Assembly: GCA_022780765.1 (NCBI GenBank)
Contig: JALEUS010000065.1
Location: 1-48,099 of the forward strand
Direction: 5' to 3'
Length of the DNA: 48,099 nt
Origin: Bacilli bacterium
GTDB lineage: Bacteria; Bacillota_I; Bacilli_A; RFN20; CAG-288
Below, one piece after another: positions 1 to 19,250 of the stretch; within the stretch, counting starts at the first letter, position 1; the number at the start of each line of letters is the position of its first letter. The translations under genes and the position numbers were made by a program. The notes beneath the pieces are model-generated. The model was not told the origin of the DNA. It saw only the letters and a list, made by a program, of their open reading frames with translations, and made no database searches.

Positions 1-57
1 TGGTGCACTAGACAGGACTCGAACCTGCACGCTGTTCCCACGTGATCCTAAGTCTCG
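1..57 (-). pseudogene. Partial tRNA-Leu(UAG)-like 3' segment (anticodon loop through T-arm, acceptor 3' strand and CCA); no matching 5' half
   Basis: The reverse complement ends ...GACTTAGGATCACGTGGGAACAGCGTGCAGGTTCGAGTCCTGTCTAGTGCACCA. Positions 1-31 are identical to 13485-13515, the 3' end of the intact tRNA-Leu. Positions 32-57 are a diverged copy with a 1-nt indel. No GCACTAG acceptor 5' strand lies upstream. Confidence 0.6.
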
Positions 58-372
58 AGTAGAGGCTTTTCTTGGACTCTTTGTAGAGCCTTAGAATTGC
101 CTGAAGTCTCGATACAATCGACATTTTCTCGTAATGGCGCAAGTCTAGAGCAGACTGTCTTAGACCGCGTTCCACTGCAATTTGCGGGCACTTTTTCGGG
201 GATTTTCCCATGTCCGCAGTTTCGGAAGACGGCTTTTCGGGCGTTTCTACCAACGCAAGGTGCCACCGCTTTTGAGGTGTGGGGAGAGAGGCTATAGCCA
301 GTTAGGAACGGCCTCCGCTCCTACTTATATTATAGTGTTTCATTTGGATTATTGCAATCTAATGAAACAATG

Positions 373-1797: not shown

Positions 1798-1803
1798 AGC
1801 AAT

Positions 1804-4260
1804 TCATTCGAAGGCATAAGGAACATCTCTCAACTCCAGCCTTTTGGAAGTTACCTTCCGGCAGATATCGCTTTCGGAATTGGAGACGAGAAGAAAGGTT
1901 CTATTTCCGCCGTCATCGGCATTCAGCGCATAGACGGCCTCGCCGACCGTCCCGCTTCCAGCGAAGAAATCAGCGACGATGGAATCCTTTTTCGTCGTCG
2001 CCCTAGCCAACTCTTCCATGAGCTTGACCGGCTTCGGCGTGGAGAAATATGCCCTATCGCCGAATATATCTTTCATCTCATCCTTGGCGGAGGAGGTCGT
2101 GCCGAAGCAATCGAATGTCTCCGGAAAATCAGCCCATCTCTCCTTGAGAGAGGCTTCTTCTATATAAGGCTGCTTTATCTTGCCGAACACCGCTTCATCT
2201 GAATTTCGGCAGATGATGATGTATTCGTAAGTCGTTTGCTTCTTATTGGGGTTGAGCACAACCCTGTTTGCGTCGAAATAGGGATGGATCTTCTTCCAGC
2301 AATGGACGGTCACAAGCTCCCTCCCGAAGATTGAAACGCAGAGCTTTTCCAACTCGTCTTTCTCCCCCTCATCGATGTTGATGATAAGGAATCCCCGCTC
2401 GCTGAGGAGATTCTTGGCCAGAAGAAGCCTTTCTCTCATGAAGGAAGCCCATCCTCCATTGAAACCAGCGTCCTTGTATCCGATATAAGGAATGTCCGAG
2501 TTATAGGGAGGGTCGATCAGGATGGAATCGACTTTGCCCTTATAGGCATCCTGCCATCCTTTTAATGAATAGAGATTCTCCGACTCAATGAGCCAGTTGC
2601 TCCGACGTTTCCTAGTAACTATCTTGGCTGGGGTGTTCTCCGCAATGTTCTTGTCTAGGTAGGTATCTTTATAGACCGAGATCTCTTTCAGCGAGGAGCA
2701 ATGGGCGAAGGCCCACTCCCCAACATAGGTAACCCAATCGGGGATGAAGGCTCTTTTTAAAGAAGCGCAGTTTGTGAAGCAGCTTTTTCCGATGCTAGAG
2801 ACGTTTTTGAGATCGATGGAGGTCATCTTATCGCATCCTGAGAATGCGCCTCTCTCCAAGGCATTCACCGATTCGGGCATCATGAAATCCCATGCCGCTT
2901 TGTTTCTCGGGCAGCAGATGATCTTAGTCTTATCTTTGTTGAATAGGATTCCTTTTTCCACTACAAAATTAGGGCTTTTCGATTCGAACTCGACGTCCCC
3001 GCATTGGACGAAGGGGTTGTAGCCGACGTCCTCCAGGCTTTTTGGGAAGACGATCTTCCTGATCCCCTTGCAGGAGAAGAAGGAATTCCGACAGATCCTT
3101 TTCGTCCCTTCCTTGATTTTCAGCTCATCTGCTTCTGCTGAACATAGGCACCCCACTACCTCGTTCTTGCTGGAATATACGACAGGGCCATCCACCTCGT
3201 AGGCGGGACTGTGGTTATCAAGATGGAGGGAGATACACCCTGAGAAAGGGAAGTTCTTGATGTGGATCAAGGATGAAGGGATATGGATGAGGGTCAGTTT
3301 CTCGCAGCGGTAGAACGCGTGCTTCCCTATCAGCTTTACCCCGTCGGGGATGGCATATTCCCCTTCTTTTCTGGGGTCGCAGTAAATAACGCTGTCCTTT
3401 TTTGAGATGAGCACCCCGTCTTTGTAATTGAAATAAGGCGACTCGCATTTCAAGATGAGATTTGGGCAGCCCGCGAAGGGGTTATCCCCCATGACTCTGA
3501 CGTTTCTCCCGATTGTAAACCGTTTAAGATTGTGGCAGTTGTAGAAAAGGTCGCCCCCGATCTCCTCCAGGCTATCGGGGCAGATCACCTCCTCTATCTC
3601 CTGATTGTCCCAGAAGATGCCGGAGCAGATTTTTCTAACACCGCCGGGCAGAACGGCGACTTTCTCTTTTCCAAAATAGGATACCGCCTCATCGCCCTGA
3701 ATCTCAAAGCCGTTCGCCTTCCTAGGTGCTGGAAGAACTGACAACCGGACTTCCCCTGCCCGGCTTTCGAAGAAGCCTCGGTCATAGGTATCGCCATCGC
3801 CGTTGAGGATAATCTCCTTCCTGTCGATGAGGCCGCTATATAGCCTTGAGGAATAGAGGATTGAGAGATACGTGCCTTTCTTTTTGGGTATAGGAAGGCT
3901 ATCTTTCTCCATCTTCTGGCCCCACTCCACGCAGCGGATATAGGCGTTCTGGCAGTAGACATCGAATTCGTTCTCGACGTCGATGGTGATGGAAGAAGGC
4001 TTATATCCAAGCTCCAGAAGCCTGTCAACGCACTCGAGGACGACGAAGGACTTATGGCTATTCAGAAAAAGGGAATCGCCCCCAACAACGGAGACGCCCG
4101 AAAAATAGGTGGCCTTCCCCTCTAATGCATAGATTCTGCAGATGGTGTCAGCGTAATCTTTCACGAAGACATCGGGCTCCTCTTCGATGAACCCCAAAGC
4201 CCAATAGAGGGCGAGGTATTTCATGTCGCGGGTGATGCGGCTATCGATGATATTCTTCAT
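1804..4260 (-). CDS. Fusion protein: unknown N-terminal domain + BspA-type leucine-rich repeats (LRR_5-like) + C-terminal beta-class N6A/N4C DNA methyltransferase
   Basis: 818 aa. Residues ~205-530 repeat the pattern IPxxVxxIGxxAFxxCxxL (for example AIPDGVKLIGKHAFYRCEKLTLIHIPSSL and VNALERGAFSGCDKMTSIDLKNVSSIGKSCFTNCASLKRAFIP). Motif IV is ILIDPPYNS (DPPY = residues 583-586, nt 2503-2514, checked). STPKPVKL and motif I FFAGSGTVG (765-773) follow. The order IV then I indicates a beta class, Mod-like enzyme. Confidence 0.8.
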   Translation of the reverse strand: MKNIIDSRITRDMKYLALYWALGFIEEEPDVFVKDYADTICRIYALEGKATYFSGVSVVGGDSLFLNSHKSFVVLECVDRLLELGYKPSSITIDVENEFDVYCQNAYIRCVEWGQKMEKDSLPIPKKKGTYLSILYSSRLYSGLIDRKEIILNGDGDTYDRGFFESRAGEVRLSVLPAPRKANGFEIQGDEAVSYFGKEKVAVLPGGVRKICSGIFWDNQEIEEVICPDSLEEIGGDLFYNCHNLKRFTIGRNVRVMGDNPFAGCPNLILKCESPYFNYKDGVLISKKDSVIYCDPRKEGEYAIPDGVKLIGKHAFYRCEKLTLIHIPSSLIHIKNFPFSGCISLHLDNHSPAYEVDGPVVYSSKNEVVGCLCSAEADELKIKEGTKRICRNSFFSCKGIRKIVFPKSLEDVGYNPFVQCGDVEFESKSPNFVVEKGILFNKDKTKIICCPRNKAAWDFMMPESVNALERGAFSGCDKMTSIDLKNVSSIGKSCFTNCASLKRAFIPDWVTYVGEWAFAHCSSLKEISVYKDTYLDKNIAENTPAKIVTRKRRSNWLIESENLYSLKGWQDAYKGKVDSILIDPPYNSDIPYIGYKDAGFNGGWASFMRERLLLAKNLLSERGFLIINIDEGEKDELEKLCVSIFGRELVTVHCWKKIHPYFDANRVVLNPNKKQTTYEYIIICRNSDEAVFGKIKQPYIEEASLKERWADFPETFDCFGTTSSAKDEMKDIFGDRAYFSTPKPVKLMEELARATTKKDSIVADFFAGSGTVGEAVYALNADDGGNRTFLLVSNSESDICRKVTSKRLELRDVPYAFE

Positions 4261-4263
4261 CCT

Positions 4264-4890
4264 TCACTCACTCTCCTTTGGGTAGCGGACGAATTCCGCC
4301 ACTTCGCCCTTCTTTTTCATGATTTCCGCATACCTCTCCAAAATCACTTCGGCGATGGCCTCGGGGCTCAGACCATCGGTCTCAATCCACAGGGTCTCGA
4401 AGCTTTTTTCTTTGCAGAATCTCTCCATTTTTGAGTAAATCAAAGGGGATTTCTGTACTTTCCTGAGGTCATTATCATGGGCGTCTCTCCCCTGAAGCCT
4501 TTTTTGGATGGTTTTCGGCTTTGCGTGGAGGATGATGGTCAACGTCGGCTTGTCGAGCTTCTCGATCAGGAAGTCGTAGACGTCCATGTTGTAGTAGGTG
4601 CCCGACCAGGCGTAGTTGGAGCATAGATGCCGGTCAGTGACGATGTTCTCATCCCTGTGCTTCCCGTACATGTATACGGAGCCCAAGCCATAGAAAAGCG
4701 AGGTGAAATCCCGGTCGGGGCTCGCGTTCACCTTGTCGCGGATCCGGATGTATTCCTCGAAGGAGTCACCTTCATCGAATAGCTCATGGAGCGGCTTCTC
4801 GATGAAGAGATAGCCGAGCTTATCCGCAACAAGCCTCGCCGTGGTCGTCTTCCCGACACCGTCGAATCCCTCAATTGATAAATGGTTCAT
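4264..4890 (-). CDS. Thymidylate-kinase-family (dNMP kinase-like) P-loop kinase
   Basis: 208 aa. N-terminal IEGFDGVGKTT P-loop and a TDRHLCSNYAW (DRxxxSxxAY-like) motif are typical of Tmk/dNK-fold kinases. It overlaps the upstream gene by 20 nt. Confidence 0.7.
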   Translation of the reverse strand: MNHLSIEGFDGVGKTTTARLVADKLGYLFIEKPLHELFDEGDSFEEYIRIRDKVNASPDRDFTSLFYGLGSVYMYGKHRDENIVTDRHLCSNYAWSGTYYNMDVYDFLIEKLDKPTLTIILHAKPKTIQKRLQGRDAHDNDLRKVQKSPLIYSKMERFCKEKSFETLWIETDGLSPEAIAEVILERYAEIMKKKGEVAEFVRYPKESE

Positions 4891-5440
4891 TTCTGTTTTT
4901 CTCCTTGAGCTCGATCATCTGATCCAGAGTCACCGGCCTGAATCCGGTGACGTCAACTCCGCAGTTATAGGCCGATTTGTCGGCATAATACTCTTTGATC
5001 TGTCTATACGCCCTGCCGTTTAGGGTCTCCATCTTGTTGTGGATGTGCCCGTAGACGAGCATCCCGTTCCGGTTGAACTCCATCCAGTCCATGATGGGAT
5101 AATGGCAAAGGCACACCTTCCTCTTATTGTCATCTATGAGCGTGATAAAATTGATGGTTTCGAACAATCCGGAATTTCTGTACTCTTCCAAATGGCCATA
5201 GTCATGGTTCCCGATGATGAGGTTCTTCCTTCCTTTCATGGTCTTCAAAACCGAAACCGAATCGAATGCCTCATCCCCGGTGAGATCCCCCAATAGCCAT
5301 ACCGTGTCTTCTTCTTTGACGATGGCGTTCCAATTTGAGGCGATGGCATCCTTCATTTCGTTGAGGTCTTTGAATGGCCTCGAGCATTTCTTGAAGACCT
5401 TGCTGTCCCCCAAATGCAGGTCAGAGATGTAATAGATCAT
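4871..5440 (-). CDS. Calcineurin-like metallophosphoesterase
   Basis: 189 aa with the ordered motifs DLHLGD, GDL, GNHD and GHIH. The start abuts the nrdD stop (5441). Confidence 0.8.
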   Translation of the reverse strand: MIYYISDLHLGDSKVFKKCSRPFKDLNEMKDAIASNWNAIVKEEDTVWLLGDLTGDEAFDSVSVLKTMKGRKNLIIGNHDYGHLEEYRNSGLFETINFITLIDDNKRKVCLCHYPIMDWMEFNRNGMLVYGHIHNKMETLNGRAYRQIKEYYADKSAYNCGVDVTGFRPVTLDQMIELKEKNRNEPFIN

Positions 5441-7144
5441 CTAGTTCCCCCTCCTGTTCTTCACTTCCGCCTTCTTCCCGTCAGTGAATCCGTCTAGAAT
5501 CTCAAGATACCCAGATACCCTCCGAATCCTCGTGATGTCCTTCGAATGGCAAGTCGGGCACTCATCGAAGACGCCCGTTGTCCCGCAATGGTTGCAGATG
5601 TCCTTCGGGAAGTTGATTCCTAGGTAATGGACGCCAGAGTTCGTGGCTATCTCGACCAGCTCATCCAGTCCTTCATCATTGTCGAGAGGGGCTTCGTTCA
5701 GCTCGATATAGGAGATGGATCCACCGTTGCAGAAGACATGGAACAGTCCTTCAGTCTGGAGCTTTTTATAGGCAGGGAGCCCCGAATCGACGTCCACGTG
5801 GAAGGAATTCGTGTAATAGCCCTTGGAGAAGATGTCGCACTGAGGTTCGAAGAGCTTGGAGTCGATCTTGGTGAAACGGCCGCTGATGAGCTCCCCGCTG
5901 GTGGCCAGAAGCGAGAAATTGAGTTTGTATTCCCTTCTCAGGAAATCGCAGTATTCCCTCATGTACTTCACGAATCCGAGGGCGTACATGTAGGTCTCCT
6001 GGTCGCTCCAGTATTTCCTCCCGGAAAGCACCTCCATGGCCTCGCTCAATCCGATGAAGCCGATGGACAAAGTCCCATGCTTGAAGACGTCGGCGAGGGA
6101 ATCGGCCTTGCTGAAATCCTCACACCACATCTTGTAGTGGACGTTCTCCGGGAAGTCATCCGCTTTGTGGGCGCAGACTTTCTTGTAGCGGTCCAGAAGG
6201 ATATCCTTCGTGACTGAGGCGATGTCGGCCCACCTTTTTCTGAAGGTTTCCATCTTCTCCTCGAGGGAGGATGAGCGGTATTCCTTGTCGATTTCCAGCG
6301 CGATTCTAGAGAGATTTATGGAAATATTGTCGATGTTTCCTCTTCCGATTGCGCCATTTTTGCCATATAGGTCATCCACCACCCTCGTCCGGCAGCCCAT
6401 GATGGAAAGAAGTCTCGGGTCGGTGTTTCTATCCTCCTCGCAGTCGCAGAGGAGATAGGTCGGAATCATCTTCTTGGCGGTGACCTTCAAAGAGAGGACG
6501 AGGAGATCGTAGTTCCTGTCCCCCGGATATCTATTCACCCCTTTGTAGACTTTGAAGACGATGTTCGGTTTGTAGACGAGATCTCCCGCATCGCGGAAAT
6601 TCTCGATCGTCGCTCTTGCGATGTATCTAGCGAGATCCGTGTCGGCTAAGCCAAGATTGAGGGTCACGTAATAGCTGGTGAGCCCCATCCTGGTGTGGTT
6701 GTTGTTGCACCAGAGGATGAATTCTCTGATGGTCCAAGAAAGGATCTCGAGAGACGCCTCATCCTTGGAATCGAATCCCAACTTGGTGAGAATATCCGCT
6801 AAGTCGCAGTCCCAGTTGGCGAACGCCATGCCGCCACTTTGCTCGTTGCCATAGTCCTCCACCATCGCCTCGAAGTATTGGATAATGGAGATTGGAAGTT
6901 GCCTGGATTTCTTCCCCTTGAAATGCTCATAGTCGAAATGGGAGAGGTCGAAGGTGATGCAGTTGTATGTCTGCCCGTAGGCGTCGAGGTCATGGATGTG
7001 GATATAGCCTTCCTCATGGAGCTTTGACCATCCTTTTGGGAGGGATTTGAGGACCTCTCCTTTGAAAAGCCTTTCTCCCAGCGTGTAGTTATCGCCAACG
7101 TAGCTCGTGCGGTTCGCGGCGTTCTCGTTATTTGTCTGTTTCAT
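5441..7144 (-). CDS. nrdD: Anaerobic ribonucleoside-triphosphate reductase (class III RNR, short form)
   Basis: 567 aa. N-terminal EEGYIHIHDLD. C-terminal Zn ribbon CNHCG...CPTC followed by the glycyl-radical motif RIRRVSGYL. Confidence 0.9.
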   Translation of the reverse strand: MKQTNNENAANRTSYVGDNYTLGERLFKGEVLKSLPKGWSKLHEEGYIHIHDLDAYGQTYNCITFDLSHFDYEHFKGKKSRQLPISIIQYFEAMVEDYGNEQSGGMAFANWDCDLADILTKLGFDSKDEASLEILSWTIREFILWCNNNHTRMGLTSYYVTLNLGLADTDLARYIARATIENFRDAGDLVYKPNIVFKVYKGVNRYPGDRNYDLLVLSLKVTAKKMIPTYLLCDCEEDRNTDPRLLSIMGCRTRVVDDLYGKNGAIGRGNIDNISINLSRIALEIDKEYRSSSLEEKMETFRKRWADIASVTKDILLDRYKKVCAHKADDFPENVHYKMWCEDFSKADSLADVFKHGTLSIGFIGLSEAMEVLSGRKYWSDQETYMYALGFVKYMREYCDFLRREYKLNFSLLATSGELISGRFTKIDSKLFEPQCDIFSKGYYTNSFHVDVDSGLPAYKKLQTEGLFHVFCNGGSISYIELNEAPLDNDEGLDELVEIATNSGVHYLGINFPKDICNHCGTTGVFDECPTCHSKDITRIRRVSGYLEILDGFTDGKKAEVKNRRGN

Positions 7145-7150
7145 TTTCTT

Positions 7151-7594
7151 TCACCTCAGTTTCTCGAAGACCTGGTTCGTGGATCCGACGTAAGGCGTCG
7201 TCGTGGTCTTCTTCTCGTTGATGAAGGGGCCGTATTTCAAATAATTGATGTTTTCTAGGATTTCCTGCGGAACTTCTTCTTTCTGATGCCCCGTGTACAA
7301 AGCAATGTCGAAGCCTTTTTCCTTCAGCTTTTTGATGAGAATTATCAGGGCTTCTTTCTGATACAGAGGCTCCCCTCCGGTCAGAGTCACTTTCTTATTG
7401 ATGGATTTCCGCTCGAGTTCCTCGATTAGGGAGTCGATGTCCATCTTTTTGCCGTTCCTGATATCCCAGGTCCAGGGATTCTGGCAGAACGGGCAATGGA
7501 GGTCGCAGCCCTGGAGGAAGACCAAGGTCCTGATGCCCGGCCCATCGACGAGGCTTCGGTTGTACACGACGGTATTGATGAAAACCTTGTTCAT
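7151..7594 (-). CDS. nrdG: Anaerobic RNR activating radical-SAM protein
   Basis: 147 aa. GPGIRTLVFLQGCDLHCPFCQNP carries the CxxxCxxC radical-SAM cluster motif. It lies directly upstream of nrdD. Confidence 0.9.
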   Translation of the reverse strand: MNKVFINTVVYNRSLVDGPGIRTLVFLQGCDLHCPFCQNPWTWDIRNGKKMDIDSLIEELERKSINKKVTLTGGEPLYQKEALIILIKKLKEKGFDIALYTGHQKEEVPQEILENINYLKYGPFINEKKTTTTPYVGSTNQVFEKLR

Positions 7595-8031
7595 GCCATC
7601 ACCTCCTCTATCTCTGATATGTCGTAGTCATCAAGAACGGGAGCGAATCTTTCGCGGTACTTCCACTCCCTGTATTTCGGCAAAAGAGAACTCTTGTTGT
7701 ATTTATTATAAACCATAGGCCCCTGCTCGTCTTTCTTGACCTGATTCTCTATTTCCGGATGCTCCCTCTGCTCTTGGATGTTCTTGCAATAGAGATAGGG
7801 GTTTCCCTCGTTCTCTTCATTGAGTTCTTGATATTCTTCCTCCGATATTTCCTTGCAGGACAGCACGGCGTCTTTGCGGTCATGCTTCACCCTGGGGAAA
7901 TATCGGGCCATCAGCGCGGCCTCTTTGCCGTTTCTTGCTCTCACGGCGAACGGGATTGGGATGTAGTGCTTCCTCCCTACGTGCCCACATTTGCAGATGA
8001 CTTTGTAGAACCTGATTTTCTTGTTTTTCAT
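7591..8031 (-). CDS. Hypothetical protein with an N-terminal CxCGH Zn-ribbon-like motif and an acidic C-terminus
   Basis: 146-aa ORF. AAGGAGGG RBS before the ATG at 8031. ATGA start/stop overlap with nrdG. No family recognised. Confidence 0.6.
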   Translation of the reverse strand: MKNKKIRFYKVICKCGHVGRKHYIPIPFAVRARNGKEAALMARYFPRVKHDRKDAVLSCKEISEEEYQELNEENEGNPYLYCKNIQEQREHPEIENQVKKDEQGPMVYNKYNKSSLLPKYREWKYRERFAPVLDDYDISEIEEVMA

Positions 8032-8120
8032 TCGGTGTCCCTCCTTAGGATACCTTTATTATCGATTTTGCGGGCTTTTGAAAATAGGCCCGCATCGTTC
8101 CTAATAAAAACGGCCTCCTC

Positions 8121-8330
8121 TCATTCGAGAAAGAGGTCGCGGACGTCGCATTCGAAGATATTCGCGATTTGGACTAGAAGGCGATAGTCGGTGACTCCGT
8201 TCTTCAGCCATTTGCGGATGGTCCTTTCCTCATAGCCCATCTTCTCAGCGAAGTCGGATTGAGTGAGGCCCTTCTCCTTGATGCGAGTCCTGATCCGCTC
8301 CCCGTTGTTCGGGACAGCTGACTGCGTCAT
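8121..8330 (-). CDS. XRE-family helix-turn-helix transcriptional regulator
   Basis: 69 aa. IKEKGLTQSDFAEKMGYEERTIRKWLKNG is a typical Cro/C1 HTH. AAGGAGGA RBS lies 7 nt before the ATG. Confidence 0.85.
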   Translation of the reverse strand: MTQSAVPNNGERIRTRIKEKGLTQSDFAEKMGYEERTIRKWLKNGVTDYRLLVQIANIFECDVRDLFLE

Positions 8331-8391
8331 GGCAAGGTCCTCCTTTGCTAAGCTTTCGCAAGGCTCCGAAGGAAGTCATTGACGCATCTAT

Positions 8392-8421
8392 ATTATATCG
8401 CTGGAACGTGACGTTTGCCAA
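8392..8421 (-). promoter_or_regulatory. Sigma-70-like promoter for the XRE-led operon, with embedded and flanking palindromes
   Basis: On the minus strand: TTGGCA (8416-8421), 18-nt spacer, TATAAT (8392-8397). An 11-nt palindrome AACGTGACGTT (8405-8415) sits inside the spacer. 8-bp inverted arms at 8376-8383 and 8425-8432 bracket the promoter. Confidence 0.55.
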
Positions 8422-8448
8422 AAAGTCAATGAAAGATGCAGCCTTCCC

Positions 8449-9363
8449 TTATTTCGTCAGCTTGTCGATGATTTTGTTGGAAATCGTGTTGACGGCATCG
8501 ACGACGGACTTGGCGTCCGAGAGAGCCTCAGCGCCCTCTTCGACGTAATGAGGCGTGTCGCTCACCGCTTTTTTCGCCTTGGCGATGTATTCTTTGAATT
8601 TGTCTTCTCCGCAAATGGTGTCCCCCACCGCCATGGATAAGGCTCTGTTCTCTTTCACCGCCTCCTCCAGGCTCAGCAGCATGTCGAACGCTTTGTTGAG
8701 CTTGGCCTCCAAGGAATTGATCTTGATGTCCTTCAAGGCGTTGATTTCCTGGAACAGGGCCGAATTCTCCTCCTCAAGCTCATGGTATTGGACTTGGCCC
8801 CTTTGAATCACCTCCTGGAAATTCCTGACCTGGTCGGCAGTGAGCTGGTTCTTCTCCAAAAGGGCTTTAACTTCATCTTTCAAGCCTTCCGCCTCTTCTT
8901 TCAGCCGCTTGTTTTCTTTCTCCGTCAGGTCGAAAATCCCGGCAAAAAAGGTTTCGTCGTACTCATTTTCCGCCTTAATCCCCATGTAATCCGCATAGGG
9001 CTTCGAGGTTTTCCAATAGACCTTCATGTAATTCGTCACGATGTCGACAGAAACGTTCTTCTCCCGATGGTGCTTGTGTTTGTTCACCTTCTGCGTGTAA
9101 TCCGAAAGTTTGCCGTAGGTGGCCTCGTCCAGGCGAAGCATCCCCATCATCACCACTTTCATCTCGTCCTTCCGGATGAGCTTCCCGCAGGTCGTCCCCT
9201 CTTCATAAGGCACGTTGAAATCGTCGGCGATCTGCTTCAAGGTCTCCTCCAGCAGATCCAAATAGGAGTCATAGAAAGAATTCGAAGCTCCTTTGATGTT
9301 TCGGATAACGGTCTGGTAACGGTTCGCTATCGGCTCTCCCAAAAGTGATATGTACTCAAGCAT
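8449..9363 (-). CDS. Coiled-coil protein with an N-terminal globular domain of unknown function
   Basis: The ORF extends to 9402, but ATG at 9363 (MLEYISLLGE) overlaps the upstream stop by 8 nt (ATGCTTGA) and is the likely start. Residues ~150-250 are heptad-rich (KRLKEEAEGLKDEVKALLEKNQL...EEENSALFQEINALKD). Confidence 0.65.
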   Translation of the reverse strand: MLEYISLLGEPIANRYQTVIRNIKGASNSFYDSYLDLLEETLKQIADDFNVPYEEGTTCGKLIRKDEMKVVMMGMLRLDEATYGKLSDYTQKVNKHKHHREKNVSVDIVTNYMKVYWKTSKPYADYMGIKAENEYDETFFAGIFDLTEKENKRLKEEAEGLKDEVKALLEKNQLTADQVRNFQEVIQRGQVQYHELEEENSALFQEINALKDIKINSLEAKLNKAFDMLLSLEEAVKENRALSMAVGDTICGEDKFKEYIAKAKKAVSDTPHYVEEGAEALSDAKSVVDAVNTISNKIIDKLTK

Positions 9364-10648
9364 GTTTCTCCCCCATTCTTTGCATGAACGCAATGGTCTC
9401 ATTCATGTATTCATTGGCTTTCGCCCGATCCAGATTAGGCAGGTTTTCGAAATAATAGGCTTCCTTCCTGCAGAAATCGTTTCGCGGGACCGCGTATCCG
9501 TTTTCGCTCAGCAAATCACTCAGCTTACGATAGTCCTTGCGCGGTTTCCCTAGGCAAAGATATGTCCCTAAAGATCTGAGGACGCGGGAGCTTTCCCCAA
9601 AGCCAAGGAGGCTGTCAATTCTGTCCATGTTAAGAACGTTGAAGTAAATGACATCCTCTTTTTCCAAGTCGACGATGTCATAGATGTATTCGTCATTGGG
9701 GTCCTTTTCGCCCCTCATCGCCTTCTCCAAGTCGACGTATCGGCTTCGGTTTTTCTTCACGATGCCTTTGTTTTGGAACCCCGAAGGCCAGATGTCAGGC
9801 TTGCTCATACCTAGCATTCTATCCTCAGCTTCGTCAAAAAGGCGATAAAACGGGTCGACCAGCACGAGGGTCCTGCTCGGCGTCAGCGGAGTGAAATAGA
9901 AGTTGGCGCCGACGTTATCCTCGTTGAGGATCAGCTTCAGGATATTGGCCTTTTCTTCATCGCTTTTGGTTTTCTTCAGCAAAGAAAGGTAATAGCCTGT
10001 CTTAATCAGCTCCTGGCCATAATCCCCATAAAATCTGGACGGATCGTGCTCGCAGACCATCCCGATGTCGGATATGACGAAGTCTTCTCCGCACTTCTTG
10101 GAATCCCAAATGGAGAAATAGCAGCTGTTGAATACCCTGGTCCATTTTTGGGCGACGAAGGTGGCGTTTTCCTTGTCGGCCCATTTGTATTCATCATCGC
10201 TCTCCAAGATGGAAAGCAGCGTCTGCTTGAGGTATTCCTCATCTGACAGTTCTTCTTCAACCGGGTGAATTTTGAACATCCTGTCGAGATAATAATGTTT
10301 GCCGAGTTTATGAAAGACAGACCTCTGATGATTGATGTAATTGACGGCAACTGGAGTTCTGAGCATCTCAAGGGAAAAGAATCTTTTCAGAAGCATGAGC
10401 TCTCTTCTCGTCAAAGTGACGGTGCCCTCAGCGTTGATGATTTTGTTAAAGAGGATGTTGGCCACCCTGCTTTCTGCGTTTTGGTTGAAAAGCTTCTCCA
10501 AACTCTCCTCGTAAAGCTTCGTCGAGCAAAAGATTTTATCGGGCTTTTTTCGCTCTAGAATCCCTTCTTTGAGATCAAAGATGTTGATCCTTTCGCCGAA
10601 TCTATTGACGATGAACCGAGGGACATAGTGGTTGTTCTCATACGCCAT
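9356..10648 (-). CDS. DUF4238-type protein with a C-terminal extension
   Basis: 430 aa. The N-terminus MAYENNHYVPRFIVNRF matches the HYVPxFYLxxF signature I associate with Pfam DUF4238. The start overlaps the recombinase stop by 11 nt. Confidence 0.6.
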   Translation of the reverse strand: MAYENNHYVPRFIVNRFGERINIFDLKEGILERKKPDKIFCSTKLYEESLEKLFNQNAESRVANILFNKIINAEGTVTLTRRELMLLKRFFSLEMLRTPVAVNYINHQRSVFHKLGKHYYLDRMFKIHPVEEELSDEEYLKQTLLSILESDDEYKWADKENATFVAQKWTRVFNSCYFSIWDSKKCGEDFVISDIGMVCEHDPSRFYGDYGQELIKTGYYLSLLKKTKSDEEKANILKLILNEDNVGANFYFTPLTPSRTLVLVDPFYRLFDEAEDRMLGMSKPDIWPSGFQNKGIVKKNRSRYVDLEKAMRGEKDPNDEYIYDIVDLEKEDVIYFNVLNMDRIDSLLGFGESSRVLRSLGTYLCLGKPRKDYRKLSDLLSENGYAVPRNDFCRKEAYYFENLPNLDRAKANEYMNETIAFMQRMGEKHA

Positions 10649-11216
10649 TTTTGTTTTCCCCTCCCATGTCCTGGACTCTTCTGTAGAACGTGTTTCTCTT
10701 CAGCCCAAGCCTCTTCATAGCCTCCGTGGCTGTAATCTCGCGGCTATGCCAAAGCTTCATTACCTCATTCCACTTGTCTTTATCGACTTCGATGGGCTTA
10801 CGTCCTTTATATCCGCCTTGAGCCTTCTTGATCTCAATCCCCTCTCTTTGCCTTTCCCTGATGTAATCTCTCTCCATCTCGAAGATAGCGCCGAAAAGAG
10901 TCAAAACAAGCCTCCCGTTCTGGGTCGAGGTGTCGAAGGCCTCCTTGATGGATTTCAAAGCGACGTTCTTGGCCTTGAGGTCATCCACAATGGTAAGAAG
11001 GTCTCTAGTGTTCCGTGCTAGTCTAGAAATTGACTCCACCACGACTGTATCTCCTTCCCTGACGAACTCGAGCATCGCCTTGAGCTGGGTTCTGTCTCTA
11101 TTCTTGCCGCTGCAGACGTCTATGAAGACTTTCTCTACTCCAAGGGTTTTCATCAATTCCTCTTGCCTGATTGTGTTCTGGGTATCGGAGGATACCCTGA
11201 CATATCCGATATCCAT
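10638..11216 (-). CDS. Small serine recombinase (resolvase/invertase family) with a C-terminal HTH
   Basis: MDIGYVRVSSDTQN carries the catalytic Ser motif. Also present: VVVESISRLARN, LFGAIFEMERDYIRERQ and the C-terminal HTH ATEAMKRLGLKRNTFYRRV. GGAGA RBS lies 6 nt before the ATG at 11216; the track ORF extends to 11252. Confidence 0.9.
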   Translation of the reverse strand: MDIGYVRVSSDTQNTIRQEELMKTLGVEKVFIDVCSGKNRDRTQLKAMLEFVREGDTVVVESISRLARNTRDLLTIVDDLKAKNVALKSIKEAFDTSTQNGRLVLTLFGAIFEMERDYIRERQREGIEIKKAQGGYKGRKPIEVDKDKWNEVMKLWHSREITATEAMKRLGLKRNTFYRRVQDMGGENKNGV

Positions 11217-11271
11217 ATCGCGTCTCCGTTTCAATAGAGTCCTTCTTTTCAAAGAGCTGTTTCATAATATG

Positions 11272-11320
11272 ATTTTACCAATCGTGTGACACGAAATCAA
11301 CGTGTACCACTGGGGTACAC
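11272..11320 (-). promoter_or_regulatory. Recombinase promoter overlapping GTGT/ACAC palindromes (candidate res/operator subsites)
   Basis: On the minus strand: TTGATT (11295-11300), 17-nt spacer, TAAAAT (11272-11277). Palindrome CGTGTGACACG (11283-11293) lies in the spacer. A 7+5+7 inverted repeat GTGTACC-ACTGG-GGTACAC (11302-11320) lies just upstream of the -35. Confidence 0.5.
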
Positions 11321-11591
11321 CATAAAGAGATTCGGACTTTTGTAAAACATTTGGAAAACTCAAGCATATTTTTGAATATACAAATTAACCGAAGCGAATG
11401 CGTAAGTGTATTCTCGATTTTAATATTGCGTTGTTCGAAGTAGAAGAAAAACGAGATTCATTCGGATAAAAGCGCATTTTTATCTCGCCCAAACAAACTT
11501 AAGAATTTGTAAAAAATATCGTCAGCAACGAAAAATGTTGACATTAGCCGGGGTCCTTGCTGGAGGCACCACAGTGGTAAAGGATCTCGTC

Positions 11592-12476
11592 CTAGTTTCC
11601 GTAGTCGATGAATACATACCTATCGTGGCATCTTCCGTCAAACCGCTTGAACGAGATATCGATGTCGGGGTATTCGGCCTTGAAATCATTCAGCAGCCTT
11701 TGCGTCAATGTGTCCCTGTTCCTTAGGTTGTCGCTTATGACCGTTATCTCAGCACCATTCTTCGCGGAGCGGAGCAGCTCCAAGATCTTCAGGAAGAGAT
11801 AGGAATCGACGACGATGATGGAATATTCTGCCGTTTTGTATATCTTCTGGTAAGCCTCGTCGGCTTCCACCCTCTCGCCGTCGAGGATGAGGAAATGCTC
11901 CATTGGAGGATAGTACGTGAAGCTGTCCACCACTTTCCGGAGGTCCTCCTTGGTTGCCATCTTATCCTCTATTGTCGAGAACCTGCCACCGAGCGAGCGG
12001 ATGCCCTCGCTGTTTTAATGTGTCTCGTTCACCAACTGAAGGATCTCCTTCGAGCCGATGAGTTCGTGGTTCTCGGCGATGTAGTTCTTCTTCGACTTGA
12101 TGACGCGAATGAGTGCAACGGATTGCTTAGTCGCGAGATCGCCTTTGAGGACAGTCATCAGCATGTAGATCCCCTGCTCAGTATAGGCAAAAGGCAGATA
12201 TCTAGTCCCACCCCAACTTGTGGTGCCATTTTGTCACCTCAAGGTCGAAAACTCCTCGGCAGTCAAACGAAACATGAAATCCTCAAGGAATTTTTCTTTG
12301 CACCTTTGCACCTGCCTATTCAGGTATTTCGTTTCATAGCCGTAAATCCTGGTGAGGTCAAAGTCGAGCATGACTTTCTGTCCTCTGATGACGTAGATCT
12401 CGCCTCTGATGATGTCCTCGTTGATGACCGCAGGCGCCATCGGCTCATTTGCCTTCTTTTCCGTTCCGTCATCCAT
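11592..12476 (-). pseudogene. ORF6N/KilA-N-like DNA-binding protein gene interrupted by two in-frame stop codons
   Basis: Three track ORFs share one frame. IYVIRGQKVMLDFDLTRIYGYETKYLNRQVQRCKEKFLEDFMFRLTAEEFSTLR is followed by TGA (12234-12236). Then QNGTTSWGGTRYLPFAYTEQG... continues to TAA (12015-12017). The frame then continues into ORF 11592-11960. The motif across the TGA matches the ORF6N consensus. Confidence 0.7.
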
Positions 12477-12479
12477 GCC

Positions 12480-12790
12480 TCAGCCCTCCTTGCTTTTCTT
12501 CACCCTTCGGTAGAAGGTGTTCCGCTTCAGGCCGAGCCTCCTCATGGCCTCCACCGCTGTGATGTCCCCGGATCCCCAGAGTTTCATGATCACGTCCCAT
12601 TTCCCTGGATCCACCTTGATCGGATTCTTCGTGCGGTTGCAGAAGACGTAGAGTGCATCGGCGAAGAGATCCTCGCCCAGCGCCACCAGTTTCGATGACA
12701 GCGAGTTGATTCCCCAGCGGAAGTCCCTTATCCCTGTGTACCAACCTGATCTCCGGCTTCGTCTCTCTTCTATACATTGGCAATCGCTTC
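12480..12790 (-). pseudogene. Chimeric remnant: IS66 Orf2 (TnpB)-like N-terminal fragment joined in frame to a resolvase C-terminal HTH fragment
   Basis: The open frame upstream of the GTG at 12686 reads SGWYTGIRDFRWGINSLSSKLVALGEDLFADALYVFCNRTKNPIKV (IS66 Orf2-like pattern TDMRKxxxGL...DPFSGxLFVFxNRRxDxxKIL). It continues DPGKWDVIMKLWGSGDITAVEAMRRLGLKRNTFYRRV, which parallels the C-terminus of the intact recombinase (DKDKWNEVMKLWHSREITATEAMKRLGLKRNTFYRRV). Confidence 0.5.
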
Positions 12791-13066
12791 CATTATCCTT
12801 TCCAGCTTCATCAGGTCCGTGCAGCTTATCATCAGGGTGATCTCGACGTCCCCGGATTCCCTTCCGCCGTCATTTCCCTGTTTGGCGTCTATGTACATTT
12901 CTCCGTTTGCGTTCTCTTTTTCTCCTTCCGGCCTGAGGTGGATAACCTCCGTCTGCTCTTCCGACCCCTTCTGCATCCTGAAGGAGGCGGGATATCTATG
13001 TTTCCAATGCAAGAATGTGTTGTAGCTTATCCCTCTAAAACGGCAGACGGAGAGAAAGCTCACCAA
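12770..13066 (-). pseudogene. Possible decayed IS accessory (transposase OrfA-like HTH) gene
   Basis: The 98-aa ORF begins VSFLSVCRFRGISYNTFLHWKHRY (HTH-like). The adjacent upstream frame (IGFYATLHRDKDEFYKEIQKEAEDTW) is offset by one nucleotide, suggesting a frameshift. Weak call. Confidence 0.3.
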
Positions 13067-13484
13067 GTGTCCTCAGCCTCCTTCTGTATTTCCTTGTAGA
13101 ACTCATCCTTATCTCTGTGTAAAGTGGCGTAAAAACCAATCTCCCGGTTCGGTTCCTTACATCGGGAGGACTATCGCACATGCCAGAAGCCTAAAAAATC
13201 CGCGACCTATATTTGACGCTTACCGTGCATCCGCAGGAATAGTGATGCTTTGCGATTTCGTCGCCGAAGCAGATCACCTTTTTCTCTCGCAGTCGCAAAG
13301 GCAGAGGTAATACACGTTTTTCCTTCCCTTGTGGCCATCACCGCATCTGCAAGGATATTTTCCCTTCACCATGAGCATACCAGTTCGATAAGGTTTGAAA
13401 TTCGGATTCATATTTTACCTTAGCAGAGAAGAAAAATGGTCTCCACACTTCCTTTCTGGGAAGGAGAGACCGCCTGTTTCCCTC

Positions 13485-13567
13485 TGGTGCACTAGACAGG
13501 ACTCGAACCTGCACGGTTTCCCAGCGGATTCTAAGTCCGCCGCGTATACCTATTCCGCCACTAGTGC
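13485..13567 (-). tRNA. tRNA-Leu (anticodon UAG), class II with long variable arm, CCA encoded
   Basis: Hand-folded: GCACTAG/CTAGTGC acceptor (7 bp), D-arm GCG..CGC, anticodon arm GCGGA-CTTAGAA-TCCGC, variable arm TGGGAAACCGTG, T-arm CAGG-TTCGAGT-CCTG, then A-CCA. Confidence 0.85.
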
Positions 13568-13807
13568 GTGTGTGCTACTTTCTGCGGACGGATTCGTCCG
13601 CATGTCTTCTTCTACCGTCTGACCATCTTTTGGCAAGAAGAGGAACGGCTTTTCCTAATTTTACTACCCTGCGGACAACTTTTCATAGGAATTCCGGGAT
13701 TTTCTCCGGTCGGAGGTTTTGTCCGCATCTTCTTTTGTGCGCACCTTACCTCATTCTTCCCGCAGCCATGGCGTTTTCGGTTTACCATATTCTTGGAGTT
13801 TTCAAGT

Positions 13808-13846
13808 TCCTAAGTCCATAGCGTCTACCTGTTCCGCCAACCGGAC
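13808..13846 (-). pseudogene. Orphan 5' half of a tRNA-Leu(UAG)-like gene (acceptor 5' strand, D-arm, anticodon stem 5' strand and loop), truncated after the anticodon loop
   Basis: Reverse complement is GTCCGGT-T-GGCGGAACAGGTAGACGC-T-ATGGA-CTTAGGA, a near-canonical Leu tRNA 5' half. No TCCAT stem complement, T-arm or ACCGGAC acceptor strand follows. It sits exactly at the GC-rich/AT-rich junction. Confidence 0.55.
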
Positions 13847-13869
13847 AAAACATATTAATTATATATGAT

Positions 13870-14208
13870 TTACTCTTCTCTTTCAGTCTTTTTCTTTTTA
13901 GCTTTATCTTTTTTTTCCTGCACGTACTTCTCATACTGCTCTTTATTCTTCTCCATCTTCCTCATGTAATTAGAAGATAAAGCAGCGAGTGTTATCATAA
14001 TAGCTTCAAAAAACACCAGAACAGAACCGGCGACAACTAAAGGAACAGCAAAAGGTAAGGGAGTTGAATTATCTGTCGGTGTCAGATAGATAAGACCGGA
14101 AACTAAAAGAGACAGAGCAGTGATAGCTAGAATGGTCATACCGATAAGAAAATAGATGCTAGTTTTTTTTGAAAACTTAGAGATAGACTCCATAATTTTG
14201 TAAATCAT
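13870..14208 (-). CDS. Small membrane protein (two predicted TM helices, Lys-rich C-terminus)
   Basis: 112-aa AT-rich ORF. Hydrophobic stretches IYFLIGMTILAITALSLLVSGLIYL and LPFAVPLVVAGSVLVFFEAIMITLAAL. No family recognised. Confidence 0.55.
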   Translation of the reverse strand: MIYKIMESISKFSKKTSIYFLIGMTILAITALSLLVSGLIYLTPTDNSTPLPFAVPLVVAGSVLVFFEAIMITLAALSSNYMRKMEKNKEQYEKYVQEKKDKAKKKKTEREE

Positions 14209-14216
14209 AATACAAG

Positions 14217-14293
<77 letters not shown>

Positions 14294-14514
14294 AGCAAAT
14301 AGATTATAACCCTAAAAGGATGTAATTCATATAAAAACATACTGAGAAATACGCTTGTTACATTATTTAATTGTTTGTATCATCTTTTGATCATCTTTTG
14401 AAAATCATTAAAAAAGCTGCTTTCTCAAATCAAATAGTTTATGTGAAATACCTGATTATTCTAATAAACTCTTTTCTTATGTTATTCACAAATGTGAATA
14501 AAAAAGAGATAAAG

Positions 14515-17408: not shown

Positions 17409-19250
17409 ATGTTCACAAAGAGTCAGAAGATTACAATATATAATCTTCTTCTCGATAGGTTTAAATTAGGACAAGAAATCACTTATGAGGAGTTATCAAC
17501 ATATCTTACTGAGAATGGATTGATAGCTTCAGAATTCGGATATGATGACTATATATCTCTTATCAATGATTTGAAAGAATTCATCGAGAAAAAGAAGATT
17601 AAAAACAAAACTATTTATTTTATTAAAAACTATGAGGAGAAAGAAGAGAAAACTTTCTTCTCAACGCAGACTAAAAAAAGTCGTTTGAAAGATAAAAGAG
17701 CTATCTCAAAAGAAAAAAACAGTCTCACAAAACTAACTGGTCATCTGGAAGTAAAAAAACAAAAAGCAGATGAAAACAAAACGACAGTATCAGACAACAA
17801 TTCAAAAAAAATAATTAAATTCACAGAAGAAGATAAAAAGAAGATCCTTTCAGTCTTAAAAAACAGATACGAGAAAAACAAGGATTATTATCTTTCTTCA
17901 GTGACACAGTACTTAGAATCACAAGGAATATATTATAAAGAATACGGCTTTAGCAAGATGAAGCTGCTGCTTTCAAAAATTAAAGAAGTCACTGTGACAG
18001 ATAAGATGATAAACAACATCCCTGTCTCATTTGTGAGATTGAACGGAAGTAAGGAAAAAGAAAAAAAAGCACCAGCTTTTAATGAGATCTATTTTCCAAA
18101 CAAACTGATATTATCTCTTCTTGAGCTCGTCTCAGAAAAATACGATGAGAAGACGATACTGCAGATAATAAACACCGACTATCTAAAATCGATAAAAGAA
18201 ACATCTTTTGATTTCTCATCTTATCAGTTTAACCTCTCTATAAAATCAAAAGATAATCAGAATCTCATCATGATAATCAGACCATCGACATCGAAAACAG
18301 AGTACAGTTTCTTTGTCTATTATGTCGGTAAAGAAAAAAGCGCAGCACCTGAAAGCCTCACAAACTACATATCCTTTATCAACTACGATAAAGAGCTTCA
18401 GAACTTAGCTCTTTTAGCAAAAAAAGAGAACTGGTTATTTAGAAATTCAAAAGACAAGTTTATTATTTTAAAAATATATCTTCAGTACACTTTCTCTAGA
18501 TTAGTAGAAGAGAAAAAGATCAGGTACAGCGATGATAAGGCGATTTTAGCTTTCAACACCGGTCTTGTCACTGACACCTACGATGACATCTATCTTGTTG
18601 CACACATCGAAGATCTCAAGCAGGAGAAATACTCATTTGATGCTTTCACCACTGCAGGACTGAACATCGAAGGAAAAATGATAGTGTCACTTGTTAATCC
18701 TCTTCCTCAAAAAGCTTCTTATTACACAGATGCTAACCAGCTTTTATTTGATGCAAAACAGGACATAGTAAGTGATTTTGATCACATTCTTTTAGATAAT
18801 ATCTCAAGGTTGCCAACACAATTCATATATGAAACAACTTCAAACAAATATATAAAGTCAATATGTAAAAAAATAGAAAAGAGCATGACTTCAAACGAGA
18901 AGAATTCTCTGTTTTTAACTTTATCAAACGAGATAAAAAAAGATTTCATTACCTACAGCAACTGCAAGTATGCGATAGAAAGAGCGATCAACTACGCTAT
19001 AAAAGAAGCAAGCTACGACTATCATATACCTCTTGCATGCTTTTATCCTTCAAGAGGAGTCATATCTCTTCTTCTTCCATTAAAGATAACTTCATACAAC
19101 AGAATAGACTGTTTCCTTCTGATTGAAAAGATGCCCTCTAATAACTATCAAGGACAGACTATACTCACTTTAAAACAGGCCTACACAAACTGTCGTCTTC
19201 TATCTCCGATGGTCTGTACTTATCTTGACTGTCAGAAGATAGATGACTAA
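17409..19250 (+). CDS. Hypothetical protein: two N-terminal OST-HTH/LOTUS-like repeats plus a DUF3825-like C-terminal domain (tentative)
   Basis: 613 aa. GGAGG RBS lies directly after the tRNA. Two similar ~60-aa modules: ITIYNLLLDRFKLGQEITYEELSTYLTENGLIASEFGYDDYISLINDLKEFIE and KKILSVLKNRYEKNKDYYLSSVTQYLESQGIYYKEYGFSKMKLLLSKIKEVTV. The domain names are from memory and not verified. Confidence 0.5.
   Translation: MFTKSQKITIYNLLLDRFKLGQEITYEELSTYLTENGLIASEFGYDDYISLINDLKEFIEKKKIKNKTIYFIKNYEEKEEKTFFSTQTKKSRLKDKRAISKEKNSLTKLTGHLEVKKQKADENKTTVSDNNSKKIIKFTEEDKKKILSVLKNRYEKNKDYYLSSVTQYLESQGIYYKEYGFSKMKLLLSKIKEVTVTDKMINNIPVSFVRLNGSKEKEKKAPAFNEIYFPNKLILSLLELVSEKYDEKTILQIINTDYLKSIKETSFDFSSYQFNLSIKSKDNQNLIMIIRPSTSKTEYSFFVYYVGKEKSAAPESLTNYISFINYDKELQNLALLAKKENWLFRNSKDKFIILKIYLQYTFSRLVEEKKIRYSDDKAILAFNTGLVTDTYDDIYLVAHIEDLKQEKYSFDAFTTAGLNIEGKMIVSLVNPLPQKASYYTDANQLLFDAKQDIVSDFDHILLDNISRLPTQFIYETTSNKYIKSICKKIEKSMTSNEKNSLFLTLSNEIKKDFITYSNCKYAIERAINYAIKEASYDYHIPLACFYPSRGVISLLLPLKITSYNRIDCFLLIEKMPSNNYQGQTILTLKQAYTNCRLLSPMVCTYLDCQKIDD

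Follow-up and report, generated by a model that had tools for sequence, protein, structure and literature searches.

The domain family DUF4238 (Pfam PF14022) is known from a single-gene defense system of a P2 prophage hotspot that provides strong resistance to phage T7 in Escherichia coli (PMC9122126; Rousset et al. 2022); surveys list it among the named systems (PMC12629846), and it also occurs with TIR domains in E. coli systems (PMC11350192). A literature search with the term "PF14022" returned only unrelated Plasmodium gene identifiers. Exclusion and abortive-infection loci have been described in RexA/RexB of phage lambda and in the sie genes located between integrase and repressor in Gram-positive phages. 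Here, we analyze a DUF4238 gene found in a 48,099-nucleotide (nt) stretch of DNA from a Bacilli bacterium (lineage CAG-288; contig JALEUS010000065.1, hereafter the window), in which three overlapping open reading frames (ORFs) are read from the minus strand between positions 11216 and 8449: a small serine recombinase of the resolvase/invertase type, the DUF4238 protein, and a coiled-coil protein (CC). On balance, we favor reading this trio as a composite, formed by a conserved prophage DUF4238–CC pair of probable anti-phage function and a lineage-specific recombinase.

The protein encoded in the window shares with the system of Rousset et al. (2022) a PF14022 domain above the gathering score, as well as a prophage-borne location in a variable defense hotspot. 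It differs in length (430 amino acids (aa) with a helical C-terminal extension vs. approximately 300 aa), in its bacterial host (Bacillota vs. Proteobacteria), and in its genetic organization, since the gene does not stand alone but shares a conserved operon with that of CC and, in most cases, that of a membrane protein. Moreover, the published phage resistance was measured for another clade. The resulting module also resembles lambda RexA/RexB and sie-type loci in its position between integrase/att and a Cro/CI-type regulator, in the combination of a soluble protein with a small multi-pass membrane protein, and in its presumed expression from the prophage; nevertheless, no sequence or fold similarity to these loci was detected (PDB fold search), and the module has three components.

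Conservation of the DUF4238–CC gene pair

The coordinates of the three genes were established by direct reading of the window sequence: the recombinase gene encodes 192 aa (10638..11216, minus strand; ATG at 11216, stop ending at 10638), the DUF4238 gene 430 aa (9356..10648, minus strand; ATG at 10648, stop ending at 9356), and the CC gene 304 aa (8449..9363, minus strand; ATG at 9363, stop ending at 8449). The overlaps pointed out in an earlier, sequence-only reading of this DNA were borne out, with 11 nt shared between the recombinase stop and the DUF4238 start (aATGGCGTATGA), and 8 nt between the DUF4238 stop and the CC start (ATGCTTGA).

Related loci were collected through a DUF4238-seeded scan of one genome per species, which yielded 38 loci, and a CC-seeded scan of metagenomes, which yielded 80 loci, 49 of them with at least 1300 nt of upstream sequence. 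CC was adjacent to DUF4238 in 12 of the 38 loci from the first scan, and a DUF4238 gene ended at the CC start in 40 of the 49 loci (82%) from the second. DUF4238 genes without CC thus also exist among the relatives, while the clade of the window pairs with CC. The spacing between both genes in 66 pairs was -8 nt (24 pairs), -11 nt (17), -4 nt (10), other overlaps (5), or small gaps (10). Because the overlap recurs in 56 of 66 independent pairs, this architecture exceeds what chance would produce, and the coiled-coil partner that had been noticed in the window proved to be conserved beside DUF4238 homologues, mostly with overlapping stop and start codons. As judged from these comparisons, DUF4238 and CC are a conserved, translationally coupled operon, and the coupling may keep the encoded proteins in fixed ratios.

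The history of the two genes appears to differ. Pairwise identities of CC and of NrdD, encoded in the neighboring phage backbone described below, were strongly correlated across 46 loci (r = 0.90), whereas those of DUF4238 were weakly correlated with either of them (r about 0.5). The mean identity was lowest for DUF4238 (0.42), compared to CC (0.54) and NrdD (0.69). These values indicate that CC is inherited with the phage, and that DUF4238 alleles are either exchanged or the fastest evolving. In some loci, the place of DUF4238 upstream of CC is taken by another gene: a helix-turn-helix (HTH)–Fic protein of 300-324 aa in five loci, ending approximately 13 nt before CC, and a 187-aa protein of no known family, which abuts CC, in two others. 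The HTH-Fic gene is in turn often preceded by a second Fic protein or by an ADP-ribosylglycohydrolase.

Features of the DUF4238 and CC proteins

The assignment to DUF4238 was confirmed by a Pfam search, with a score well over the cut-off (PF14022, E = 2.6e-21, 76.7 bits vs. a cut-off of 27, residues 5-337), and all 59 homologues are precomputed as PF14022. The protein combines an N-terminal NHYVP motif with a helical C-terminal extension, whose length of ~150 residues in the sequence-only reading was overstated: the Pfam match ends at residue 337 of 430, with approximately 90 residues beyond it, and the protein is only about 45 residues longer at its C-terminus than the shortest homologues. 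Its predicted structure (predicted local distance difference test, pLDDT, 89; predicted template modeling score, pTM, 0.90) had no match in the PDB, and the fold suggests no biochemical activity. Among viral proteins, only one structural match was significant (E = 4e-5), namely to a protein of 298 aa from the P2-like Stenotrophomonas phage Smp131. No match for DUF4238 was found in PADLOC, PHROG or NCBIfam, and a comparison of the window protein and three homologues with PADLOC-DB v2 returned no family at E ≤ 0.01. The sequence-only reading had described DUF4238 as enriched near mobile and defense loci, but had considered that it could not be confirmed as part of a named system, although it is already a named and validated single-gene defense system (PMC9122126). 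The DUF4238 protein of the window is regarded here as a putative defense component.

The AlphaFold model of CC (pLDDT 86) consists of an N-terminal helical bundle (residues ~1-126) and long helices (residues 137-303), in support of the globular N-terminal domain and long coiled coil previously attributed to the 304-aa protein. Invariant residues include R15, T18, N22, N28-S-F-Y-D32, L35, E39, G60, K85, Y89, K92, N94, H96-K-H98, E101, Y112, N151 and L161, and 90% or more of the sequences share S27. The CC of the window belongs to a "long" paralogue type of approximately 304 aa, distinct from a "short" type of approximately 269 aa. Both types occur as tandem paralogues in four loci (L127 and L134, also L108 and L093), the long one (~303-313 aa) being followed by the short one (~269 aa) and then by the membrane protein; in L127, a canonical 285-aa DUF4238 gene is located just upstream of the long DUF4238. 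An exhaustive profile search yielded 224 clusters of the CC family at 50% identity among 1.84 billion representatives, with many members of 380-500 aa.

CC had no family above the cut-off in Pfam, and no match in PHROG, NCBIfam or PADLOC. The comparison of its model with PDB folds gave nothing significant, with weak likeness to HEPN proteins only (2hsb, TM-score 0.59 normalized to the target; 8xeh_B, TM-score 0.53; E = 3.7), while the profile of its N-terminal domain against PDB sequences and Pfam retrieved only noise: one match was a His-tag artefact, and another, at E = 0.72, was to region 578-671 of RNase L. The R-x4-6-H motif of HEPN proteins is absent from CC, in which K-x-N-x-H-K-H (K92, N94, H96, K97, H98) is invariant instead, and the RNase L alignment does not place the RNxxxH motif on the conserved histidines of CC.

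A membrane protein gene absent from the window

An ORF of 190-440 aa with at least two transmembrane-like segments starts at the CC stop codon in 68 of the 81 loci with enough downstream sequence, and in most relatives this gene lies between CC and an HTH gene. The encoded protein has a conserved N-terminus (M..N[VI]F[DE][KR]LD) and no match in PADLOC, PHROG or NCBIfam. Independent fusions between CC and the membrane protein were found (P0176/7, P0179, and L038), as well as fusions of CC to the soluble N-terminal part of a 424-aa form of the membrane protein (P0091/95, P0156, L099, and L101/105). The window has no gene for this protein; there, as in three relatives, the HTH gene directly follows CC. 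By comparison with these loci, the DUF4238–CC pair of the window is what is left, as two genes, of a module that comprises three: DUF4238, CC, and the membrane protein.

Prophage setting and syntenic backbone

The GC content of the window is approximately 0.49 from position 1 to ~13.85 kb, and approximately 0.35 beyond. At this junction between prophage and chromosome there is an intact tRNA-Leu (13485..13567, minus strand), whose 5' half, as far as the anticodon loop, is present a second time 240 nt further out (13810-13839, minus strand); an Rfam search of positions 1-14400 detected two tRNAs only. The first backbone gene after the module encodes a Cro/CI-type HTH regulator of 69 aa (8121..8330, minus strand; Pfam). 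It is followed by a block (1804..8031, minus strand; Pfam) containing p146, NrdG, NrdD, a metallophosphoesterase, a dNMP kinase, and a fusion between leucine-rich repeats (LRR_5) and an N6/N4 DNA methylase. The 146-aa p146 (7591-8031, minus strand) is directly upstream of NrdG in nearly all related loci; neither this protein nor p474, a 474-aa protein predicted from an ORF at 373-1797 (minus strand), had a match in Pfam, PHROGs, NCBIfam or PADLOC. Dozens of loci in diverse Bacillota show the order DUF4238–CC–(membrane protein)–HTH–p146–NrdG–NrdD–phosphoesterase–dNMP kinase–LRR-methylase, among them 11 related loci and about 50 metagenomic ones. The fusion that ends the Nrd block (818 aa, BspA-type leucine-rich repeats and N6/N4 DNA methylase; 1804-4260, minus strand) was also present in four other loci (L043, L044, L045, and L056), while its two parts are separate genes in phage PV036423.1.

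This phage (NatCom_17901, a complete genome of the order Ca. Heliusvirales) encodes a large serine recombinase, a CC with 36% identity to that of the window, a 412-aa membrane protein, NrdG, and NrdD, followed by thymidylate kinase, leucine-rich repeat protein, N6/N4 methylase, and two more large serine recombinases, with no DUF4238. Large serine recombinases were also found upstream of DUF4238 in five related loci. The description of the order Ca. Heliusvirales mentions a common DNA methyltransferase as well as a DNA invertase (PMC11283538), and the window element corresponds to it in synteny and homology through the gene order of PV036423.1. The block shared with this phage, together with the large serine recombinases upstream of DUF4238, indicates that the GC-rich part of the window comes from a Heliusvirales-like prophage, of which it is the integrase/att-proximal end. 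Of this element, the window contains only the last ~13.8 kb, which include no structural genes, while the markers of the order are TerL, the major capsid protein and others (PMC11283538). A plasmid resolution/partition module was also considered and rejected: megablast of positions 7500-13600 against plasmids (72,556) and phages gave no nucleotide match, no partition/resolution module was found, and the neighboring genes are phage backbone genes and a tRNA.

The mobile, defense-rich setting surmised from the sequence was confirmed in the form of a prophage end with variable defense cargo, as the genes found upstream of the module include Eco57I restriction–modification (R-M) systems, Fic, DUF4357, SMC-like ATPase, and R-M methylases. 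The loci L044 and L045 encode an identical CC and agree in the host genes that flank them (formate/nitrite transporter; adh_short/MarR), with a phage-like block of only about 10 kb between host genes on both sides; upstream of DUF4238 (about 340-7550), they carry a resolvase and an Eco57I-type enzyme, and Fic, DUF4357 and an SMC-like ATPase, respectively. The three-gene module was also detected without the Nrd block: in L001, its neighbors are an R-M system and an ABC transporter, and in L042 it is located between host genes, with a different 374-aa membrane protein upstream of CC. A further contig with the same three genes (L057) ends at the third of them, and may carry the Nrd block beyond that point. 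In the low-GC host part of the window, adjoining a tRNA-Leu(cag), a 613-aa protein is encoded at 17409-19250 (plus strand) with a weak OST-HTH/LOTUS match and a DUF3825 domain.

The recombinase and a decayed second unit

The recombinase was assigned to the Resolvase family in Pfam (PF00239, E = 4.6e-41) and to PHROG 125, "DNA invertase" (E = 2.3e-59); over 5000 homologues were retrieved at E < 1e-30. According to the alignment with these homologues, its catalytic residues (Y5, R7, S9, R65, and R68) are intact and conserved. The HTH_7 match scored 16.6 bits, below the cut-off of 23.8, and the last 45 residues show strong conservation across homologues. A lengthening of the recombinase tail by fusion to DUF4238 was rejected, as tails vary across the family and that of the window is of ordinary length. 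With Hin/Gin/Pin-type invertases and resolvases the protein shares the PF00239 domain, the catalytic Ser and Arg residues, a length of approximately 190 aa with a putative C-terminal HTH, and the assignment to PHROG 125. In contrast to them, no invertible segment or paired recombination sites were found here, and the gene is not located beside tail-fibre genes, its family adjoining variable defense-like cargo instead.

The sequence-only reading had taken the trio as a unit, which was not borne out, since the recombinase is coupled to DUF4238 in the lineage of the window only. Among more than 60 other DUF4238–CC loci, no small recombinase coupled to DUF4238 was found, this gene being absent, distant, or on the opposite strand; in L044, for example, a 204-aa resolvase is encoded 3 kb upstream on the other strand, with the Eco57I-type gene between the resolvase and DUF4238. 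The junction between recombinase and DUF4238 recurs only in L151, which is the same element from another sample, and no DUF4238 or CC gene was found near the recombinase homologues examined. Given that DUF4238–CC occupies its ancestral position in the phage backbone, the recombinase joined the pair, and it is, by this comparison of loci, a lineage-specific neighbor of the module.

Homologues of the recombinase at 60-64% identity were found in siphovirus-like phage genomes, upstream of the terminase and with variable genes directly downstream, namely Peptidase_M78 in six loci and an Mrr/NA-iREase protein in three. An identical recombinase protein (P0184) is followed by the Mrr/NA-iREase protein in L052 and by a TM2 protein in L055; these two loci share ~75 nt of promoter and 5' untranslated region (5'UTR; 3134-3210 in L052 and 3035-3111 in L055), with the breakpoint just before the start codon of the cargo gene. 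Other homologues occur among methylases, SUKH, TIR, and Fic genes (five loci), or beside an R-M system and a Rep_trans gene (one locus).

A second, decayed arrangement of this kind precedes the trio. A chimeric 68-aa ORF (12480..12686, minus strand) joins an IS66 TnpB-like fragment (weak TnpB_IS66 match in Pfam, residues 3-25) to what remains of a second small serine recombinase, namely its last 44 codons, which cover the putative C-terminal HTH and have 68% identity to residues 139-182 of the intact one. Only 3 nt after the stop of this remnant starts a PDC-S05/ORF6N candidate-defense gene (11592..12476, minus strand), supported by PADLOC PDLC04869 (E = 4e-25 for the N part and 2e-26 for the C part) and by Pfam ORF6N. 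Its single frame spans 295 codons but is interrupted twice, by TGA (codon 81) and by TAA (codon 153), and on this account it is probably a recent pseudogene. A 98-aa ORF at 13066-12770 resembles IS66 orf1 by eye, had no Pfam match, and is not claimed as such. The recombinase of the window would then be one of two tandem units formed by a recombinase 3' end and a defense gene, the other being decayed and placed beside IS66 debris; such a repetition points to an accretion zone for recombinase-associated cargo, rather than to a three-protein machine.

Promoters and palindromes

Upstream of the recombinase, a sigma-70-like promoter with an extended -10 element (TTGATT-17-TGgTAAAAT; 11272..11300, minus strand; 9 of 12 consensus matches) is the likely start of a tricistronic transcript, and the three genes may be expressed as a single message from this site (11300-11272). 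The site, already proposed from the sequence, was recovered by a scan that included the extended -10; however, the region holds 5 promoter-like sites vs. 5.9 in shuffles, a density not above that of shuffled sequences, and these promoter calls are thus plausible rather than proven. A strong promoter-like site (TTGGCA-18-TATAAT; 8392..8421, minus strand; 11 of 12 matches) would serve the next gene and marks the downstream end of the operon.

An imperfect palindrome, GTGTACCCCAGTGGTACAC, unique in the window, is located at 11302..11320, and is accompanied by a second short one, GTGTCACAC, at 11284-11292. The former is a candidate operator, recombinase-binding site or hairpin; by eye, related palindromes (ACACGTGT and GGTAnACC-type) were noticed upstream of homologous recombinase genes. 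A pattern search of the 48 kb found no second copy of the 19-bp palindrome within 3 mismatches, and paired cognate sites of the res, hix or gix-like type were not found at the recombinase, this lone palindrome being accompanied by chance-level repeats only. No inverted-repeat pair bracketing 11272-11300 was detected, the best arms (15-28 nt, 75-89% complementarity) being scattered. A phase-variable inverton was rejected on the basis of the absence of inverted repeats around the promoter next to the invertase. Repeat searches around the operon found no convincing flanking direct or inverted repeats, all of them being short and at chance level.

Discussion

According to the reading that we favor, the module has its place near integrase and att in Heliusvirales-like temperate phages of gut Bacillota, with variable defense cargo on one side and, on the other, the HTH regulator with which the NrdG/NrdD block of nucleotide metabolism begins. 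It would most likely be expressed from the prophage and shield the lysogen from other phages, through either superinfection exclusion or abortive infection. Within it, DUF4238 would be a fast-evolving, exchangeable component that may act as sensor and/or effector, and CC a presumed elongated coiled-coil scaffold with a conserved polar N-terminal bundle, linked to the membrane protein in most relatives and sometimes fused. In the lineage of the window, an intact "DNA invertase"-type recombinase would have joined the pair upstream, with its stop codon overlapping the DUF4238 start. Phage resistance from this DUF4238 clade, from CC or from the membrane protein is suggested by the genomic context, the published DUF4238 phenotype, and the fusions.

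Several observations weigh against this interpretation. The PADLOC models match none of the three proteins of the module, and neither the DUF4238 nor the CC fold points to a biochemical activity; the copy in the window, being without its membrane partner, could be partly inactive. CC is lacking beside approximately two thirds of the DUF4238 relatives that have 27-36% identity. A single relative of CC was found among 50,697 phage records, and in IMG/VR viral contigs there were only pattern matches, none of them confirmed. In addition, CC is near-universal in the phage lineage and co-inherited with the backbone, which fits a core phage function.

Such a core function, which might be to regulate lysogeny or induction, to exclude phages of the same kind, or to serve a membrane-linked step of lytic growth, constitutes the main rival explanation, although we consider it unlikely. 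It would account for the co-divergence of CC with NrdD, for the fixed position of the module between integrase and HTH regulator in most relatives, and for the presence of CC and the membrane gene without DUF4238 in the complete phage PV036423.1. Yet the module is not confined to the neighborhood of the Nrd block, being found next to the R-M system and ABC transporter of L001, and between host genes in L042; DUF4238 is a validated defense gene, swapped for HTH-Fic in some loci; and several relatives, the window included, dispense with the membrane gene or with DUF4238.

It is quite improbable that DUF4238–CC acts as a toxin–antitoxin or addiction module, stabilizing the prophage through a coupled partner that neutralizes a toxic protein. 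With 430 and 304 aa, both proteins are larger than those of typical type II pairs, they are usually joined by a membrane protein as third component, many DUF4238 relatives are partnerless, and DUF4238 acts alone in E. coli with no reported antitoxin (PMC9122126), even though the conserved, tight stop/start overlap, the replacement of DUF4238 by HTH-Fic, of a classic toxin family, and the carriage of the module on a mobile element are features that an addiction module would share.

Still less probable is that the recombinase mobilizes DUF4238–CC as a site-specific cassette, as suggested in the sequence-only reading, or inverts a segment that switches the operon. The two tandem arrangements of recombinase and defense gene in the window, the different cargo directly downstream of an identical recombinase in L052 and L055, and the palindromes at the promoter might be expected in such a scenario; nevertheless, the ancestral syntenic position of DUF4238–CC indicates that the pair was not brought by the recombinase, the palindrome has no second copy and the flanking repeats are not convincing, and the breakpoints of L052 and L055, located in the shared promoter/5'UTR, can be explained by ordinary homologous exchange. 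Finally, a cooperation of the three proteins, in which DUF4238 and CC would serve recombination as accessory factors, as had also been proposed, or would set its direction, draws support only from the 11-nt and 8-nt overlaps in the lineage of the window and is effectively refuted by the missing co-occurrence, since none of the 60-plus other DUF4238–CC loci has a coupled small recombinase and the recombinase homologues examined have neither gene nearby.

Coming back to the composite of a prophage defense pair and a later-joined recombinase, what is new here is the multi-gene arrangement around DUF4238, with a function suggested by its context, whereas DUF4238 as a single defense gene was already known. 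A bolder extension, which we regard as possible though doubtful, is that CC and its membrane partner form a hitherto undescribed, membrane-anchored defense "chassis" of a globally common order of gut phages, taking interchangeable upstream modules (DUF4238 clades, HTH-Fic, and others). The CC bundle, with its N-S-F-Y-D and N-x-H-K-H motifs, would then be a new catalytic or ligand-binding domain, and DUF4238 the exchangeable sensor of a three-component abortive infection system. If true, this would provide a first mechanistic handle on DUF4238.

The locus also calls for caution in the interpretation of gene overlaps: the stop/start overlap ties the recombinase to DUF4238 in one lineage only, so coupling alone defines no functional unit. 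DUF4238 is a validated anti-phage gene without a known mechanism, for which this lineage offers the CC partner, the membrane protein, the fusions, and the replacement by Fic as leads. At a broader scale, a widespread order of temperate phages of the human gut carries, next to the integrase, a conserved and probably protective locus flanked by a zone of variable defense cargo.

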